Shown here: positions 32,175 to 60,214 of the stretch, in pieces
Layout of the letters: every line of letters begins with the position of its first letter
Position numbering within the stretch: position 1 is the first letter of the stretch
Origin: Escherichia phage 1-6bf
Direction: 5' to 3' (one strand)
Sequence record: OR983334.1
Length of the DNA: 64,000 nt
Position numbers and translations under genes: made by a program
The notes under the pieces: generated by a model
The model's database searches: none
What the model was told of the DNA's origin: nothing
What the model saw: the letters and a program-made list of their open reading frames with translations, nothing else

Positions 32175-32277
32175 GAGCTTCTAGCGAGGATGTATCTTCC
32201 CCGCCTTCTAAGCGGTCGTTAAAGAAGTAATTGGAGTATGCAGGTTCGAACCCTGTCATCCTCGCTAGAGGCTCTTG
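32172..32277 (+). ncRNA. tRNA-like structured element (about 20 bp outer stem, internal UCU-loop hairpin and T-arm-like hairpin)
   Basis: Outer stem AGAGCTTCTAGCGAGGATG / CATCCTCGCTAGAGGCTCT; inner CCGC-CTTCTAA-GCGG and GCAGG-TTCGAAC-CCTGT; no canonical D-arm. Confidence 0.3.
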
Positions 32278-43789: not shown

Positions 43790-44986
43790 ATGACTACTCG
43801 TATCCGTGTTCTTCCTTATGGCCCTTCCGATTCAGTTCGTGAACTTACTTCTGCAATTAATACTAAGATTCAGGAACTCCGCTTAAATGCTAACGTAATG
43901 TCTTTGGTATCAGAAGGCTCTCGTTATCGTTCTCGAGCTGGTGATATTGTTGTAAACTATGGCAACCGCCGTTATGATGCTTCTTTCTTTGGTGGTGCAA
44001 CCGTATTGAACCCTGTTGAAGCTCTGAACCGAGCGGCTAACAAGATTGCAGCGTTCAACGCATTGCGTTTGGCTGAAGTTAAGACTGTTGAATACACTAT
44101 CGATCACGAATTAGCTCTGAACTGGAACCGAACCGAAATTGTTTATGAACGTGCAACCTTAACTGGTCACTCTGGTGAAGGTATCACCGTTCGTCTTCCG
44201 GGAGAAGGTGTTGCAAGTGCTCCTCTGTATACGAAAGGTATTCAAGGCCCACGTCGTGAATGGCGTGTTCATGTGTTTGAAGGTGTTATCACTTACGTTC
44301 AGAAGAAGATTCGTCGTAATGGATATCGTGAACTGGAAAGCTACCGTGAAGATATTCGTAACCATCACACTGGTTGGGTTTATTCTAACGCATTCACTGA
44401 AGCTCCTCCTGATCAAGTTCTGATTCAAGCTCACAAAGCTGTATCTGCTCTGGGCTTAAACTTCGGTGCTGTTGATCTGATTAGTAAAGGGAATAACGCT
44501 TGGGTTCTGGAAGTAAATACAGCTCCGGGACTGACTGGTACAACTCTGGAGACTTACACTCACAATATCGTTGAGTTTGTTAAGAGCTTCTCTGGTGTTG
44601 AACCTGACTATCGTGTTGCTTACCAACTGCCTGTTGAAGAAGTGGAAGAAGAATTTGCTGAATCAGCAGATGATGAGAACTTTGCATTAACAGCTGAGCC
44701 AGTTGCTGAAGAATCTTCGGAACCTGTTCCTGAAACGATGCAAGTTGAAGAGCAAGGGTTAGAGATCACCCCGATCACCCGTCGTAATCTGCGTCGTGGT
44801 TATTACATCGCTAACATCAAGCATCCTGAAAACGGTTCAACTGTAGCAAGTAACGTAATTGTTTTCTTCTGCGGTCGTAACTTCTACCGCTCTGGCTGGA
44901 ATGCTCCAATTAGTGATCGTCAGCTTGGTCGTGTGTTGCAGATTAATAGCATTACCCTGAATGATGGCACTGTTGTAAACTACTAA
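43790..44986 (+). CDS. ATP-grasp ligase (RimK-like) with acidic C-terminal region (398 aa)
   Basis: TLTGHSGEGITV Gly-rich loop, EWRVHVFEGV, FGAVDLI..WVLEVNTAPGL Mg/ATP-binding block. Confidence 0.6.
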   Translation: MTTRIRVLPYGPSDSVRELTSAINTKIQELRLNANVMSLVSEGSRYRSRAGDIVVNYGNRRYDASFFGGATVLNPVEALNRAANKIAAFNALRLAEVKTVEYTIDHELALNWNRTEIVYERATLTGHSGEGITVRLPGEGVASAPLYTKGIQGPRREWRVHVFEGVITYVQKKIRRNGYRELESYREDIRNHHTGWVYSNAFTEAPPDQVLIQAHKAVSALGLNFGAVDLISKGNNAWVLEVNTAPGLTGTTLETYTHNIVEFVKSFSGVEPDYRVAYQLPVEEVEEEFAESADDENFALTAEPVAEESSEPVPETMQVEEQGLEITPITRRNLRRGYYIANIKHPENGSTVASNVIVFFCGRNFYRSGWNAPISDRQLGRVLQINSITLNDGTVVNY

Positions 44987-45492: not shown

Positions 45493-45912
45493 ATGTCAGA
45501 AGTAATTTACGTAGCAACTTATGGTTCTCTTCGTCGTGGTCAAGCTAACTATTTAGTTAATGACCGAGCTGGTGCTAAGTCAATTGGTGAAGGTTGGACT
45601 GAAGACAACTTCGATCTGTTCCGTTATGGTGGTTCCTACTTCCCAAGCATCTCTCTCACACACAGCAATAATAATAAGCCTGTTCGTGTAGAAGTGTTTG
45701 CTACTGACAAAGCAGGTCTGGAAGGTCCGTATGACCGTCTGGAAGGTTACAACAAACATAGCCCTGAAGACAGCTTCTATCAGCGTACTCAGATTGCTGT
45801 TAAGATGGACTCAGGTGAAACTGTTATCGCTTGGATTTATCACATCGACAAAGAACAAGACGTTCTGGTTGAATCTGGCGACTGGTCAGAGTATCTGAAA
45901 AGTGAATCTTGA
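45493..45912 (+). CDS. Gamma-glutamyl cyclotransferase-like (AIG2/GGCT family) protein (139 aa)
   Basis: N-terminal VATYGSLRRGQANY and later YDRLEGY, matching the YGSL / catalytic-Glu pattern. Confidence 0.5.
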   Translation: MSEVIYVATYGSLRRGQANYLVNDRAGAKSIGEGWTEDNFDLFRYGGSYFPSISLTHSNNNKPVRVEVFATDKAGLEGPYDRLEGYNKHSPEDSFYQRTQIAVKMDSGETVIAWIYHIDKEQDVLVESGDWSEYLKSES

Positions 45913-46131: not shown

Positions 46132-47922
46132 ATGTCAAAGATCATTTTGGGAGACACAGGTTGTAAGGAATGTATCTCTCATGGTCGTGATAAAACCCAC
46201 AACCACATGATTCTCTTCCGTAACGAAGAGACAGGTGAGGAGTGGGGAAGTTGTAACCGTTGTGGGAATTACGAAGTGTTCGAAAAGGGCACTACACCTA
46301 CTCCAAACGAGAGAAAAGAGTTATCCCCTGAAGAGTTGAGAGAAGTCTTAGATGATTGCTTAGAGCTTCCTCAGGGAGAGCTTACTCGACGTTTAATCCC
46401 CAAAGCTGTATCAGAGCGTTTTGAGTGTCGCATCGGTCTAAGCCAGACTGATGGGCAGACTCCAGACAGCTACTTCTTTCCTCGTGAACGTGATGGAAAC
46501 ATTGTTGGTTACGAGGTTAAGCTGCTAGATAGTAAGAAGTTTTATTATGTCGGCAGTGTGAAAGAAGCAGATTTATTTGGTATGGCACAAGCTCAACGTG
46601 GAGATGTGTACAACAAGAAGCTCTTCATTTTTGAAGACCCGCTATCTTGTATGTCTGGTTTCCATGTCCTCACAGCTTTTACAAATGCAACAAACATTAA
46701 ACCAGCATGTGTTTCTTTACCGTTCGGTGCAGGTTCAATCTCTTCTGTGTTGTCTCGTAACCGAGACTTCGTAAATGGTTTTGAGGAGGTTGTGCTCTGC
46801 ATGGACAACGATGATGCAGGTGAGATAGCTTTAACAAAAGGTCGTTCTTTATTCCCTCATGTTAAGTTTGCTCGTATTCCTAAAGGAACTTTCCCATACA
46901 ACGGTGTGGAGAAAGAGATTAAGGATGCGAATGACATGCTTCTGTCTGGTCGTGGTCAAGAGTTATTCAACATTCTCAAGTACTCAGCAAAGCGGGAATC
47001 TCCTGCTGGAGCTGTAACAATCTTTGATTGCCTTGATGATGCTCTGAAGAAAGCGGAGTGGGGTATCCCATATCCGTGGAAGACTCTGAATGAGATGACC
47101 TTCGGTATTCGATGGGGAGAGGTGGTAGCAATTGGTGGTGGAGTAGGGAGTGGTAAAACACTCATTGCTCACGAGCTGGTTGCCCATCTGTGCTTAGAGC
47201 ATGGTTTTAATGGAGGTGGCTTCTTCTTGGAAGAGAAGGTAGGCATGTCTGTTAAGAACATTGCTGGTAAGTCAGCATCAATTCCTTTCCACCGACCTGA
47301 TGTTGAATATGATGAGGAGGATTTGCGTAATGAAGCACTTCGTTATGCAGACAAATTCTTCTTGTATGACAACTTCGGACAGAACGAATGGGAAGACATT
47401 AAACAGTGTATCCGTTTCTGGGTAGTTGAAAACCAGTGTAAGTTCATCATCCTTGATAACATTACCGCTCTGGTGTCTCATTTAACACCTTCAGAGATTA
47501 ACACTGAAATCAGTAAGATTGCTTCCGAGCTTGCTGGTATGTGTAAAGAATTAGACTTTACCGCTTTCGTGCTATCTCACCTTAATGCTCCGGCAGGTGG
47601 TGCTCCTCATGAAGAAGGTGGACAGGTACGTGAAGTACAGTTCACTGGCTCTCGTTCTCTTATGCGTTGGTGTCAGTGTATCATTGGCTTTGAGCGTGAC
47701 AAGCAAGCTGATGGCTTAGCTAAGAACATCTCAGTCATTCGATTGCTGAAAGAGCGTAACTATGGTCAGACTGGTGTCTGTTATACTAAGTATATCAGTG
47801 AAACCGGTAGGCTTGTAGAAAGGGAAGACTTTGAAGTCGATGAAGATAATCCATTCGTTTTAACTAATGGAGAGGATGCAGCTTCTCTCGTCAACCAAGC
47901 AGATGGAGCTTCACCGTGGTAA
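46132..47922 (+). CDS. DNA primase-helicase (T7 gene 4-like)
   Basis: N-terminal zinc ribbon CKEC..CNRCGN, central primase region, helicase Walker [10 protein letters not shown] and Walker B-like IILDNIT. Confidence 0.7.
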
Positions 47923-48473
47923 AGAAAAAGAAGAAAGTGTTTGCATTCGATATCGAGAGTAATGCACTGTACGATGACATAACTAAAGTATGGTGTATTT
48001 ATATCTTCGATGTTGAAACTGGTGAAAGGTGGGGCTATCGGCCTCACCAAATCGAAGACGGGATTCGTAAACTGACAGAAGCAGATGTGCTCGTGGGTCA
48101 TAATATTATTGACTTCGACTTACCTGCTCTGAAGAAGATGTATCCCTCTTTGATTAAATATAATTTTAACGTCTTTGACACTTTATGTCTTAGTCGATAT
48201 CTTAAACCTGACCGTATTGGTGACAGTCCTGAGTATCCGAAAGGCGACCCTAGACGTGGCCCAAGGGGTCATGGCTTGAAGCAGTGGGGTGAGTTCTTAG
48301 GAGAACTTAAGGGCGATTATGGTGAGCAAGAGGAAGCATGGGATGCTTTCACTGAAGATATGTTTACTTATTGTGAACAGGACGTTAACTTAACTGTTAA
48401 GGTTTATCTTTTCTTGTGTGAAATCACAGGATTTGACCCTTACGACCCACCTTCATTATATTGGAAAATGTAA
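47916..48473 (+). CDS. DNA polymerase 3'-5' exonuclease domain as a separate gene (185 aa)
   Basis: FDIESNAL (Exo I), [43 protein letters not shown] align by eye with the T7 DNA polymerase N-terminal domain. Confidence 0.7.
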
Positions 48474-48474
48474 A

Positions 48475-49824
48475 ATGATTGTTATCCCGATTAACCGAAT
48501 TGAAGATAAGGTTGCTCAACAACCTGATATCACTGTTGGTCGTCACTTCATTGAACAGCTGATTAACAACAACTTGATTCCAGACTGTATTTGTCCTATC
48601 ATCACTGGTGGGGCTATTCGTGATGCTGTGCTTAATAACACAGCTCCGCATGACATTGATATCTTTATTGTCAGAGGACAGGCCCCAAGAACTCGAAATA
48701 CTTTCATCCGTCATGAGCAGTGGCAAGATCTCGGACGAGAAGTTGAAAGTAACGTTAAAGAGTGGCTTGAGTCTCAAGATATTGAATATGCATCACTTCT
48801 TGCTGAAGCTACAAACGAATCCTATGCTGGGGGTTCTCAATTAACATTCACTGATATTATTGAGTTTCAGTGGAATGGGGTTCGTATCCAATTCATGTTT
48901 AATTATCCTACTTCTATCGAAGAGGTATTGGATAACTTTCCTATGATGTGCCGTGGTGCGATGACTCTTGACAACTTATTCATGACTTCTCACGGATACT
49001 TGGCTATGACTGCCCCTTGTCCAGTGGTTGTTTCTAGTCGTGAAATCAGGTATGTTCACAAGAAGTGGCCTAATTCACAAGTGTTGAGATTTTCCTCTCC
49101 AGCAGTTGCACATCAATACATGGCCCAAACTCGATATCTTCCCACACCTCAGCCAGTTAGTCACCTAGTCAATGGATTAGGTCAGGTTTCTCTTATTGAA
49201 GATACAACAAGTGCTCTATATTGTGTTAACCGAGACATGAGTCTATTCTTTGGAATCCCTTATGAAGAGATTCAGATTATGTCTAGTCTTCACGGTTCCG
49301 GTCAGATTCATGCGTATTGGTCTGAAGGGTTGACAAATTTAACGACTAATACAGGAGGAGATCTACTTGGTCGAGAAGAAGAGCCTAGTCGTCATAACGC
49401 AATCGAAGGGGTGTTTGTAGCCCCTACAAGACGCCGAGCAAACGAAGCACGAAATATAAGCTCTACTCGTAGAACATCTTTTGAAGAAGCTCTTGGTATT
49501 ACAAGTGATTCTATGGAGAGATGGATGGCTAGTCCTTCTCGTGGTCGACCAAACGGCTTCAATGTTAGTGCACGTCAGTTCTCTGGTCAGGGTTTCGCTG
49601 TTGGTGATATCAACGCTCCTTCTCGTGTTATCTGGACTGATGAAGGCGTGGCTCAAGATGTGGTAGGTAGTCTCTCCGATCTTGATATTCCTTCTCATGA
49701 CGAACTCGCTGAGACTGTCAGCCGCAGTCTCGCTGATCGGTTTGTTGCCAACAATCCTGAAGTATTAGAGCCTCAGGTTGGTGGAGAACTGGACCACTTA
49801 ATAAATTCACAAAACATTCGCTAA
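48475..49824 (+). CDS. Pol-beta-type nucleotidyltransferase with CCA-adding-enzyme-like head motif (about 450 aa)
   Basis: ITGGAIRDAVLNNTAPHDIDIF matches the GGxVRD..DxD head motif; rest divergent; ATG at 48475 right after exonuclease stop. Confidence 0.45.
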   Translation: MIVIPINRIEDKVAQQPDITVGRHFIEQLINNNLIPDCICPIITGGAIRDAVLNNTAPHDIDIFIVRGQAPRTRNTFIRHEQWQDLGREVESNVKEWLESQDIEYASLLAEATNESYAGGSQLTFTDIIEFQWNGVRIQFMFNYPTSIEEVLDNFPMMCRGAMTLDNLFMTSHGYLAMTAPCPVVVSSREIRYVHKKWPNSQVLRFSSPAVAHQYMAQTRYLPTPQPVSHLVNGLGQVSLIEDTTSALYCVNRDMSLFFGIPYEEIQIMSSLHGSGQIHAYWSEGLTNLTTNTGGDLLGREEEPSRHNAIEGVFVAPTRRRANEARNISSTRRTSFEEALGITSDSMERWMASPSRGRPNGFNVSARQFSGQGFAVGDINAPSRVIWTDEGVAQDVVGSLSDLDIPSHDELAETVSRSLADRFVANNPEVLEPQVGGELDHLINSQNIR

Positions 49825-49836
49825 TAAGGAAAAAGA

Positions 49837-50370
49837 ATGAGTTTACTAGGAAGTATTGAACTGCACGATGTAATTGACAATGGTTATCTGGATGCGGAGC
49901 ATAAGTATGTTAACGCTGCTAGTGTGGATATCCGTATTGGTGATACTATCCTTGTTGAAGAACAGGCTGATGGCATCGTTGATATTGATGCGAAAGAAAA
50001 TCTTCAGTGGAAGGAAGTAAAGATTCCTGAAGAGGGTTTGGTTATCACTCCGGGTCAGTTCTTCTTGGCTCACTCTATGGAGGAGTTTAATCTTCCAGAT
50101 AACATCTCAAGTCTGTTTGTTCTGCGTTCATCTATGGCTCGTTGTGGTTTGAACCACCTCCATGCTGGTTGGGCTGATGCAGGATTTAATAGTAGTAAGC
50201 TGACATTTGAATTCCACAACGTAACCAAGCACCATAGCTTACGAGTTCGTGCTGGTATGCGTGTTGGTCAAATGGTTATGTTCGAGCACTCTCATGCAGG
50301 GGAACACTCCTATGCAGTGAAGGGTCGTTATAATAACTCTGAAGGTGTAGTTTCATCTAAAGGTGTGTAA
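49837..50370 (+). CDS. dcd: dCTP deaminase family protein
   Basis: VDIRIGD .. SSMARCGL .. GRYNNSEG align by eye with dCTP deaminase / dUTPase-fold blocks. Confidence 0.65.
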   Translation: MSLLGSIELHDVIDNGYLDAEHKYVNAASVDIRIGDTILVEEQADGIVDIDAKENLQWKEVKIPEEGLVITPGQFFLAHSMEEFNLPDNISSLFVLRSSMARCGLNHLHAGWADAGFNSSKLTFEFHNVTKHHSLRVRAGMRVGQMVMFEHSHAGEHSYAVKGRYNNSEGVVSSKGV

Positions 50371-50568
50371 ATGAAAAAGTGGATTGTTCGTGTACATGAT
50401 AACACGACTGGAGAGTTAGTAGCTGTAGATTTTGTTAAGACTCGAGAGCACGCACGTAGGGTCAAAAATCAATACAAGTCTACTTTTAGACTTAACAAGG
50501 TTACATTAGGAAGAGCTATCGTGAGTAGTGAAGGTGCTTTTATGGCAAATAGTAAGGTTTATTACTAA
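50371..50568 (+). CDS. Small protein, paralog family C member 1 (65 aa)
   Basis: MKKWIVRV..KVYY. Confidence 0.4.
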   Translation: MKKWIVRVHDNTTGELVAVDFVKTREHARRVKNQYKSTFRLNKVTLGRAIVSSEGAFMANSKVYY

Positions 50569-50777
50569 TGAGACCGATCACCATGAGACAGTTTTGGTTA
50601 GCGAAGATTAAGTGGGCATCAGGCGGGATGACTATGACTGCACTGCCCACCCGTCAACAAGCTCGAGAGTTTAAAAAGTCTATGTTCAATGTAGACTTAA
50701 CTAAGAATATTAGCATTCACAAGGCCAGAGAATATTCCTCTGGTCGTGTTTATATCAGCGGAAAGGTACATTACTAA
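50568..50777 (+). CDS. Small protein, paralog family C member 2 (69 aa)
   Basis: ..ARE..KVHY; same length class and C-terminal motif. Confidence 0.4.
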   Translation: MRPITMRQFWLAKIKWASGGMTMTALPTRQQAREFKKSMFNVDLTKNISIHKAREYSSGRVYISGKVHY

Positions 50778-50986
50778 TGAAAAAGATGTGGGCTGTTCGT
50801 GTTGTTTGGGAACAGAAGCAACACTTAGGTAAAGATAATATCAAACTGTTTAACACTCGCAAAGAGGCTCGTGTCGCTAAAAAGAACATGAAAGCTCTAA
50901 TAGGAACTGTTAAAAGTGCTGACATTCATCGCTGGTATGAAGACCCTAGCTCGGGTTCTTTTATGTCTAAAGTAATTTACTACTGA
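50777..50986 (+). CDS. Small protein, paralog family C member 3 (69 aa)
   Basis: MKKMWAVRV..KVIYY. Confidence 0.4.
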   Translation: MKKMWAVRVVWEQKQHLGKDNIKLFNTRKEARVAKKNMKALIGTVKSADIHRWYEDPSSGSFMSKVIYY

Positions 50987-57915: not shown

Positions 57916-59616
57916 GTGAGCAACCCGGACGCTCTTCCATTTTTGACAGAGATGACTGTCGCTGATATAATCTCTAAGCAAGCAAAGCACGGAGTGAGTT
58001 TCAACCGAAGAAATGCTCGGTGGTATGTTCACCTCCTTAAAGAGATTATTGTTAATATTGACAGAGAGTTGATTCCTCTCTTACCTAAGATGAGATTAGA
58101 TGGCTCTACTTATATGAAGCCGTTTAAGAAGTCTGGAGCTTTGCAGAAGTGGCCTCAAGCCTATTGTGATAGAGTTGGGCTGAAGAGAGAAGACATTGGT
58201 GGAGCTTTCACCTGTGTCGAATACGTAGACTTTGACCCATCGAAAGATGCACGAGTTAAAGAAGCTCTTATGGATGAGGGCTTTCTTCCTCCAGAGTTTA
58301 ACGTATCTAAGAAGCCTTGGAATACTTTCGAAATTAAGAAAGATATGAGAAAGTATGGAACATACCAAGCATGGTATACTGCTTGGATGCGAGGAAATGC
58401 TAAGCAGAAGCAGACAGCCGAGATGGTTGACGCTGATATTAAGAAGTTCTTAGAAAAGCATTTTAGGTTTAAAACTAAGAACTATATGAAGGCTTACGTG
58501 TTTGGTTTGGGATTAAACCCGAATCGACGTAATCCTGTAACGTTTGATGAGATTAAGAAAGCACTAGCCACTTCAAACAAGTGGCCTACAGCTCCTACAA
58601 ACCTCGAGGAGACTCTTGAAGAAGGGTTAGGGGGTGAGCTAGGGAGTGTCGGAAGTTTGCTTAAGAGACGCGTTGTAGCGGCTCACAGGCTAGGTCTTAT
58701 CAGTGGACTCATAGCAAAGGAACGCGAAGATGGTAAACTTTCGGCAGAAGCTAACAGCTGCGCTACGCCGACTTTTCGATTCAAACATCGTATCGTGGTT
58801 AATATTCCCTCCCGTGGTTTGTTTGGTCACGAGTGTCGCAGTTTGTTTGAGTCTGACTATAACTCAGACAGTGATCATTCTCGTCCTTTCGTTATTACTA
58901 ACGTTGTTCCTGATGGTTGTTATATACGAAAAGGTACTAACGTAATTTATGAGAAAGGTAAACCGGGGAAGAAAGACAAACCTGTAGGTGCTTACAAATA
59001 TTACATACCCGCTGGTAAAGAAGTATTCTTAGGGTATGATGGTTCTGGGCTTGAACTTCGTATGCTCGCTCACTACCTCATTAAAGAGTGTAGGGATATG
59101 CTTGCTGAGGCAATTGAAGAGAACAACCCAGCTAAGAAAGCTCTGGCAGAACGTGGTTTAGCTTCTGCTATTATGTATCGTGATATTCTCCTTGAAGGTG
59201 ATATCCACTCCCACAACCAGAAACTTGCTGGTCTTCCTACTCGTGACAACGCTAAAACGTTTATCTATGCATTCAACTACGGTGCTGGCGATGCTAAGCT
59301 TGGTTCAATTGTAGGTGGTGGGGCTGACGAAGGTTCAGTGATGCGAGCACGTTTCTTGGCAGAGAACCCATGTATTGCAATCCTCATTGATCGTATGACA
59401 GAAAAGGCTGCTCAAGGGTACTTGATTGGTGTTGATGGTCGTAAGATTACAATGAGACGAGATGCCACTGGTAAAGTTATGGTTCATAAAGCCCTTAACA
59501 CACTCCTGCAATGTGCTGGTGCTGTTGTTATGAAATACGCTATGATGTTCCTTAACAAGTGGATTGAGAGGGATGGGGTTCGTTGTGCTAAGGTAATTGA
59601 TATGCATAAACTTCAT
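57916..59616 (+). CDS. Family A DNA polymerase, polymerase domain (exon 1; 3' boundary uncertain, ORF track frame runs to 59637)
   Basis: GTG start with AAGGAG RBS; motif A LGYDGSGLELRMLAHY, motif B RDNAKTFIYAFNYGAGDAKLG, GVDGRKI..ALNTLLQCAGA; aligns by eye with T7 DNA polymerase. Confidence 0.7.
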
Positions 59617-60214
59617 TGTGCATGTAAAAGTTGGTGAACTCGGTGAAACCCGACCATTAAGTTGAGGGCAATACCGAGCTAAGCTATTAGGAGGTGATAT
59701 GGCTAAGAAAGATCTAGTGCTAGAAACAACTAGCACAGGATGTATCATCCCTATCTCACACAAACTAAATAAAGATGGTTACTTTCGAAAAATGATAAAT
59801 GGCAAATGGGTCATGTATCACAGATACGTCATGGAAGAGAAATTTGGAAACATCCCTGACGGTTATGAAGTTAACCATAAATGCAAGAATAGAGCTTGTT
59901 GCAATACTGACCATCTAGAAATCTTAGAAGGTAGTGCACATGCTATCGAGTCAAACACTGGCAGAAACAGAGAAAGACAGAATGCTGCTAAAGAGTTCTG
60001 GCTTAACAATGAATGCACTGGTGTTGCTCTTGCAGAAAGGTTTGGTGTGAGCTTTGGAATCGCTTGTAGATGGATTCGAAAGTGGAAAGTGTAGAGACTA
60101 TCCTGCGGGAGTAGGGGGTTAACAGGGAAACCCTCGAAGCGCCAACAACAGCAAATTAGCTATGCTGTTATGATATAGTCCGATACCCGAAGTAATTTGG
60201 GAATAACATAAATG
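59617..60214 (+). mobile_element. Candidate group I intron carrying an HNH endonuclease ORF, interrupting the polymerase before motif C
   Basis: Exon 1 frame stops before motif C; downstream reading DEGQ..GLNWMHTH supplies motif C and the conserved C-terminus right after a G at 60214; HNH ORF lies between. Confidence 0.45.
59699..60094 (+). CDS. HNH homing endonuclease (intron-encoded candidate)
   Basis: GYEVNHKCKNRACCNTDHLEI HNH motif; AGGAGG RBS. Confidence 0.7.
   Translation: MAKKDLVLETTSTGCIIPISHKLNKDGYFRKMINGKWVMYHRYVMEEKFGNIPDGYEVNHKCKNRACCNTDHLEILEGSAHAIESNTGRNRERQNAAKEFWLNNECTGVALAERFGVSFGIACRWIRKWKV

Follow-up and report, generated by a model that had tools for sequence, protein, structure and literature searches.

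What does a nucleotidyltransferase-like protein do when its gene lies between an exonuclease gene and a dCTP deaminase gene of a phage? The question is raised by the open reading frame (ORF) at 48475..49824 (+) of Escherichia phage 1-6bf (sequence record OR983334.1), of which a stretch of 64,000 nucleotides, here called the window, was analysed. The ORF begins with ATG and encodes 449 amino acids (aa) plus a stop codon, and its product belongs to PHROG 12715, 'nucleotidyltransferase' (NTase). A sequence-only reading of this DNA had proposed a tRNA 3′-end repair or maturation enzyme, possibly countering host tRNA-targeting defences, or else a different nucleotidyltransferase; the evidence favours the second half of that proposal. 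Our reading, to which we give a probability of roughly 45%, is that the ORF encodes an accessory, phage-specific protein with a minimal (mini) class II NTase fold. Judged from sequence and predicted structure, it would bind nucleoside triphosphate (NTP) and Mg2+ through motif A and, if active, would carry out untemplated tailing of 3′-OH ends.

Relation to class II enzymes and to PHROG 1614

The NTase-like protein matches PHROG 12715 over its full length (E 4.7e-248, aa 1–435 on profile positions 1–436 of 457). Word-indexed homolog searches got no further than close relatives (77% identity or more) and a single protein at 39%; what defined the family was an HMMER search run exhaustively over 1.84 billion cluster representatives. 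It gave 31 proteins at E ≤ 1e-3, and no bona fide CCA enzyme was among them. The family alignment and profile comprise 26 members, and all counts of residue invariance given for the family refer to these. Residues G45, G46, R49, D50, D60, D62, F64, Y117, I128, Q139, P156, Y193 and K197 are invariant family-wide, and all homologs start with MIxIP. Many members are 274–320 aa long; therefore the common core covers about aa 1–290 and the long tail is lineage-specific. Most close homologs carry the precomputed Pfam label PF26128.2, not PF01743; PF26128.2 turned up neither in the local Pfam scan nor in the papers searched.

The sequence-only reading had rested on an N-terminal segment, ITGGAIRDAVLNNTAPHDIDIF, which corresponds to residues 43–64 and which it took for the class II head motif (GGxVRD..DxD). 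That observation holds. Motif A, G45 G46 x x R49 D50 ... D60 x D62 (48607..48660, +), the putative NTP- and metal-binding site, reads GGAIRD...DID here (aa 45–62); its six residues are invariant in all 26 members, and the family aligns with class II enzymes in hhalign. The pattern GG.[VI]RD.{6,14}D.D occurs a single time across the six-frame translations of the whole window.

The likeness was examined against class II tRNA nucleotidyltransferases with a PF01743 head, such as those of B. stearothermophilus (1miv) and T. maritima (3h37), human TRNT1 (1ou5) and E. coli Cca. PF01743 (PolyA_pol head) matches the protein with E 7.3e-4 and 20.3 bits, under the gathering threshold of 23 bits, and within the family it gives weak matches only, in 15 of 26 members with a best E of 2.5e-4. 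A scan of the protein against NCBIfam gave no match, and a PDB search with the single sequence returned nothing significant; the 26-member profile reaches the CCA-adding enzyme 6ibp at E 0.0027. Among solved structures, CCA-, CC- and A-adding enzymes have the closest folds. Profile and structure comparison, the check that the sequence-only reading had named, thus retrieved the class II / Pol-beta fold and not an unrelated one.

For profile-profile comparison, a class II profile was built from E. coli Cca, PcnB and three solved enzymes taken from PDB alignments. A word-indexed search with the head and neck of Cca was unusable for a diverse profile, returning near-identical enterobacterial Cca alone (at least 87% identity). 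In hhalign the family aligns with the five-sequence profile over 25 columns, covering motif A only, with probability 82–86% and E 5e-6 to 1e-5. Forced long alignments (mact 0.05 and 0) add zero-confidence columns past motif A and were not used for motif mapping. Against single sequences, hhalign gave motif A alone or nothing meaningful, with no meaningful alignment for PcnB. The class II assignment at the sequence level is thus weak and confined to motif A, and in the exhaustive HMMER search class II enzymes and the phage family did not match each other in either direction.

Past motif A, the features of class II enzymes are missing. RRD, DxxGG and EDxxR are invariant in the five-sequence class II alignment; a regular-expression search of the NTase-like protein found no motif B (RRD, RRDxTxN), motif C (DxxGG) or motif D (EDxxR). 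RRD discriminates the ribose, and EDxxR is the amino-acid template for selecting CTP or ATP. The class II enzymes possess C-terminal body and tail domains, whereas the NTase-like protein has a disordered tail of 160 aa instead, and neither the Pfam scan nor the predicted model contains an RNA-binding body/tail domain (PF12627 and related), in keeping with the sequence-only reading, which had found no obvious body-domain match in the remainder of the protein. PcnB (PAP I, 3aql) keeps RRD and EDxxR as well as a basic RNA-binding C-terminal region, with a head-and-neck pI of 9.3, whereas the phage protein is without these. Because most of the defining features fail (the PF01743 threshold, motifs B, C and D, and the body/tail), the protein, as judged from its sequence and model, is not a CCA-adding enzyme; it passes as a protein of Pol-beta / class II-lineage fold.

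The MenT / AbiEii toxins, which are minimal NTases, form a separate family (DUF1814) whose match is much weaker than that of class II, and an antitoxin-like partner gene is not present. Among PADLOC models (CD-NTase, MenT/AbiEii and others), no family matched the NTase-like protein at E ≤ 1.

The nearest sequence relatives outside the family are found in PHROG 1614, whose members are small 'nucleotidyltransferase' proteins of 176–205 aa from T7-like phages (phiAS7 gp3, Ahp1 gp19, PP47 gp29, PM16 gp16, VP93 gp16). In a viral fold library the best non-self matches were small T7-like phage proteins (194–215 aa) with target-normalised TM of 0.47–0.62, and one of them, phiAS7 gp3, belongs to PHROG 1614 (E 2e-37). 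The NTase-like protein matches PHROG 1614 at E 2.8e-7 in hmmscan, and hhalign extends the match over 105 columns, the whole head (95.5%, E 1.4e-8). PHROG 1614 in turn aligns with the class II profile (96.4%, E 1.2e-9), its FDCxxNQ standing opposite motif B, RRDFTINA. Common to both phage families are GG, R, DxD, an invariant Tyr, the hairpin, a Phe before motif B and the location in a replication module. In a seven-sequence alignment the invariant residues of PHROG 1614 are G, G, R, D-x-D, Y108, D133, F149, D150 and N154. It keeps D133 and a motif-B-like FDCxxNQ (D150, N154), whereas in the NTase-like family these positions are taken by Gln139, by Pro156 and by a residue that varies. The NTase-like proteins are also longer by about 100 structured residues, and those of many lineages bear a long tail as well. 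By these sequence comparisons the NTase-like family is a sister of PHROG 1614 and not a member of it.

Among isolated phages the NTase-like family is confined to Gordonclarkvirinae (97 records). PHROG 1614 occurs in 177 phage records, from Klebsiella, Vibrio, Aeromonas, Pectobacterium, Proteus, Pseudomonas and Escherichia phages. Its gene directly adjoins the DNA polymerase gene in phiAS7, Ahp1, PP47, PM16 and Ptacy1537, is one gene away from it in VP93, and lies directly upstream of primase/helicase in Vasula. The two families together form a phage-only, replication-linked clade of mini class II NTases in about 270 phage records. Podophages of two lineages, the Gordonclarkvirinae and many Autographiviridae, both with T7-type replisomes, would carry such genes beside those of their polymerases.

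Head domain, putative active site and C-terminal region

The head domain (aa 1–147; 48475..48915, +) is predicted to adopt the Pol-beta / class II NTase fold. It shows both the fold similarity and the hG[GS] and [DE]h[DE]h signature of the Pol-beta superfamily on an alpha-beta-alpha-beta core. A beta-hairpin follows at aa 125–146 (FTDIIEFQW-NG-VRIQFMFNYPT; 48847..48912, +; DSSP strands 125–133 and 136–146), which bears Gln139 and Glu130 and aligns with the hairpin of PHROG 1614 in hhalign.

Gln139 (48889..48891, +) is Gln in 26 of 26 members and stands opposite the invariant Asp133 (phiAS7 numbering) of PHROG 1614, so its placement on that residue is supported by the alignment. Asp133 is the natural candidate, and a likely one, for the third catalytic carboxylate of PHROG 1614, because it is the sole invariant acidic residue after DxD besides the motif-B Asp. 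In class II enzymes the third carboxylate is the Glu of the 'EVxTFR' strand, invariant across the five aligned sequences. Gln139 lies at +4 from the turn residue Gly135, the same register that Glu79 of B. stearothermophilus (Bst) CCA, which we take to be catalytic, keeps from its own hairpin-turn Gly. The second replacement is in Phe155-Pro156 (48937..48942, +), where Pro156, invariant in 26 of 26 members, occupies the position of the motif-B Asp (class II RRD; D150 of PHROG 1614).

These replacements indicate that, relative to canonical class II enzymes, the chemistry or the substrate has changed. Since motif A is intact and the new residues are as invariant as those they replace, we read the active site as rebuilt and not as decaying; transferase activity may have been lost. 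Position 130 is acidic (E/D) in 17 of 26 members, and Glu130 would lie cross-strand from Gln139. Either Glu130 or the acidic residue 190 might possibly substitute for the lost carboxylate.

Residue 190 belongs to a mostly helical extension (aa 148–290; 48916..49344, +), which is family-specific and confidently modelled (DSSP, pLDDT), and which stands in for the class II neck but lacks the neck's motifs. Within it, the helix R189-[D/E]190-x-x-Y193-x-x-K196-K197-x-P199 (49039..49071, +; DSSP helix 188–197) has an acidic residue at 190, Y193 and K197 each in 26 of 26 members, and is a candidate substrate- or phosphate-binding element.

The Ser/Gly/Arg/Glu-rich tail (aa 291–404; 49345..49686, +) is predicted to be disordered, with pLDDT below 50, and varies in length and charge between lineages; its pI is 4.9 here (acidic) and 9.4–12 in most other lineages. 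Between Kuravirus genomes, dN/dS is 0.10–0.14 for the core and 0.20–0.33 for the tail, and the tail is therefore a constrained coding sequence under purifying selection. The C-terminal helix (aa 408–431, ...LADRFVANNPEVL; 49696..49767, +; pLDDT 73–79, DSSP) is conserved in Kuravirus, as seen across SU10, phiEco32 and L006, and might serve as a partner-docking element. The charge of the core was dropped as a test of nucleic-acid binding, as three of five genuine class II head-and-neck regions are equally acidic.

The last 17–18 residues or so (49768–49821) end in ...EPQVGGELDHLINSQNIR, while SU10 and phiEco32 end instead in ...EPQTRTVRFADEAGRGISF.... A frameshift was rejected as the source of this divergent end, the replaced 3′ segment being common to a sub-clade of Ptacy1479, O18-011 and Paul.

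Proposed function and its rivals

As an accessory mini class II NTase, the protein would bind an NTP-Mg2+ complex at motif A and, if still catalytic, would transfer nucleotidyl groups without a template onto a 3′-OH, most likely that of an RNA end. To our knowledge, every characterised class II enzyme transfers the nucleotidyl group to the 3′-OH of an RNA end without a template. The choice of substrate or partner would fall to two elements, the conserved R-[D/E]-x-x-Y-x-x-K-K helix and the tail, which is disordered and carries a terminal helix. CCA-adding work is excluded from this scheme because the protein has no tRNA-measuring body/tail and no base-templating EDxxR.

That the protein is accessory and not part of the core replisome follows from two observations. 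In Salmonella phage 7-11 the module recurs (primase/helicase, endonuclease VII, exonuclease subunit, dcd and a separate PolA) with nothing between the exonuclease gene and dcd, and the homologs in Autographiviridae are patchy, being present in 37 of 46 Pectobacterium phages versus 60 of more than 500 others (PMC7693777). Since phage 7-11 runs its replication module without the NTase-like gene, the accessory function is probably related to the host or to conflict with it.

Several points weigh against this reading. Invariant Gln occupies the position of the sister family's candidate catalytic Asp, invariant Pro that of the motif-B Asp, and the protein may be devoid of any nucleotidyl transfer catalysis. 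The correspondence between Gln139 and class II Glu79 would follow from the hairpin register and from transitivity through PHROG 1614, and hhalign pairs the class II Glu strand with another, non-conserved strand, at low confidence. The acceptor might possibly be RNA, DNA, a protein or a small molecule, and literature searches found no experimental work on the NTase-like family or on PHROG 1614.

The best placed of the rivals, itself doubtful, takes the protein for a pseudo-enzyme: with Gln replacing the third carboxylate and Pro the motif-B Asp, transferase activity would have been lost, and the NTase fold would now serve in nucleotide binding or in a purely structural role. It might, for instance, sense (d)NTPs as a regulator, or form a scaffold that the tail tethers to replication proteins. 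Gln139 and Pro156, each invariant where PHROG 1614 has an invariant Asp, speak for it together with the combined absence of RRD, DxxGG and EDxxR. So do the position of the gene, which starts one base past the stop of the exonuclease-subunit gene and adjoins dcd, and the tail, whose long disordered stretch and terminal helix are typical of docking regions. However, G45, G46, R49, D50, D60 and D62 stay invariant across about 23–30% identity, which is unusual for a dead enzyme, and the acidic residue at 130 (17 of 26, predicted to lie cross-strand from Gln139) or at 190 (26 of 26) could supply a carboxylate.

Rather unlikely, in our estimate, is that the rebuilt Gordonclarkvirinae site, with its Asp to Gln change, its motif-B Asp to Pro change and its new helix, has acquired a new activity and acts as an accessory factor of host takeover or counter-defence. 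Such an activity could be, for example, an unusual specificity for nucleotide or acceptor, or a nucleotide-sensing switch.

A replication-linked terminal transferase would use dNTPs, the ribose-discriminating RRD having been lost, and would add them without a template to DNA 3′ ends or primers in replication or end processing. We hold this to be improbable: phage 7-11 lacks the gene and replicates by the same module, the structure resembles Pol X clearly less than it does class II RNA enzymes, the Pfam scan detected no DNA-binding domain, and the adjacency of the genes may reflect only a shared middle-gene timing.

Still less probable is the tRNA 3′-end (CCA) repair or maturation enzyme of the sequence-only reading, which would counter host tRNA-targeting defences. 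Its attraction lies in the closest solved folds, which are CCA-, CC- and A-adding enzymes, in a patchy accessory distribution that suits an anti-defence role, and in a tRNA-like element of the window without an encoded CCA. The tRNA 3′ end is also a known target of E. coli defence toxins, among them toxSAS/CapRel and NTases of the MenT/AbiE type (PMC11559606, PMC10435456). Yet the protein has neither a body/tail domain nor any of motifs B, C and D, the PF01743 score is under its gathering threshold, and the gene is placed in a replication and dNTP module. Moreover, E. coli supplies its own Cca, so that the activity is already at hand in the host.

As to the tRNA premise, ARAGORN found no tRNA in the window, and Rfam gave one borderline match at 32186–32264 (+), with 29.7 bits versus a threshold of 29 bits. 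In this element the acceptor stem and the T arm are good, the D arm is nearly missing, the anticodon loop reads UCU (Arg) and there is an insert of 20 nucleotides (nt); a 17-bp stem encloses the whole (flanking stem 32176–32273; minimum free energy z-score −4.7). The syntenic site of SU10 is occupied by a canonical tRNA-Arg(TCT) whose CCA is genomically encoded, and Kuraviruses generally have one tRNA of the SU10 tRNA-Arg type (PMC9965538). The non-canonical variant of the window is found in few relatives only (1-6af, FH3, Bas93, Bas94), while the NTase-like gene is found throughout the subfamily, and no connection between the two was seen. An enzyme that serves the phage's own tRNA was thus rejected, as the SU10 tRNA-Arg encodes its CCA and the tRNA-like element is rare among relatives. 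With motifs and domains missing, Gln at the likely position of the third carboxylate and the CCA of SU10 encoded, tRNA 3′-end repair or maturation is left unsupported.

Least probable of all is nucleotidylation of a target other than nucleic acid (protein AMPylation, a small molecule) or the synthesis or interception of a signalling nucleotide for anti-defence, against which stand a class II match distinctly better than that to any such NTase and the lack of a PADLOC match, the acidic core being no discriminator given the equally acidic head-and-neck regions of three of the five class II enzymes.

The class II resemblance is not new. RefSeq names the orthologs 'nucleotidyltransferase', and the same label was given in the 2014 SU10 paper, in which the protein was detected by mass spectrometry through one peptide (PMC4281155); here that annotation is rediscovered. 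Added here are the caution that the label is not to be taken as 'tRNA CCA-adding enzyme', the membership with PHROG 1614 in a replication-linked, phage-only mini class II clade, and the exchange of two otherwise invariant acidic residues for other invariant residues in the Gordonclarkvirinae branch. An active protein would reveal the capabilities of the smallest class II catalytic core when no tRNA-binding domains are attached, and might point to a new phage activity of an accessory or anti-defence kind; an inactive one would be a clear case of a phage pseudo-enzyme held under purifying selection. The Asp to Gln and Asp to Pro changes and the link to a clade of about 270 records make it a reasonable biochemical target.

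Genomic context

The phage is phiEco32-like, and the DNA of this region is 91–95% identical to that of E. coli and Shigella Kuravirus phages (SU10, CHD5UKE1, Bas90/91, Paul and others; Gordonclarkvirinae), and tblastn gave 69 full-length matches to the protein in other phage records, 76–93% identical. The gene, a middle gene of the replication module, is the third of a conserved four-gene order. The first is primase/helicase (46132..47922, +), with a DnaB-like C-terminal domain (PF03796, E 9.3e-11), and the second encodes a PolA-type 3′-5′ exonuclease subunit (47916..48473, +; PF01612, E 1.2e-8). The start codon of the NTase-like ORF is one base past the TAA stop of the exonuclease gene, and the fourth gene, dCTP deaminase (dcd), follows downstream (49837..50370, +; PF22769, E 3.6e-34). 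The matches to PF01612 and PF22769 bear out the position between exonuclease and dcd genes that the sequence-only reading had assigned. The order of primase/helicase, polymerase exonuclease subunit, NTase-like gene and dcd is kept in Kuravirus, Nieuwekanaalvirus, Suseptimavirus and two distant metagenomic phage contigs, as seen in SU10, EP335, ECBP2, MLP3, L009 and L010. It argues for co-expression with replication functions. A role as a core replisome subunit was rejected, phage 7-11 having the same module without the gene.

In phage 7-11 (11438–12717) the exonuclease gene and dcd are adjacent, with a gap of 185 nt, and the endonuclease VII gene is inserted between primase/helicase and the exonuclease gene. 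The family A DNA polymerase of the window is split into the 185-aa 3′-5′ exonuclease (47916–48473) and a 573-aa protein with the polymerase domain (57916–59637), about 9.4 kb apart. A split PolA is likewise annotated in SU10 and 7-11.

In relatives, genes just ahead of the replication module are annotated as encoding an ATP-grasp protein ('ribosomal protein S6 glutaminyl transferase'), gamma-glutamyl cyclotransferase, glutamine amidotransferase and amidoligase. ORFs of the window that match this peptide/amide-ligation set lie at 43790–44986 and 45493–45912 (+), and upstream. Directly downstream of dcd, three small abutting ORFs (50371–50568, 50568–50777 and 50777–50986, +) encode 65–69 aa each. 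They resemble tandem paralogs, being 22–26% identical and sharing Trp4, a TRxxARxxK motif and a C-terminal Tyr. At the site of this cluster, a run of small hypothetical proteins is annotated in SU10.
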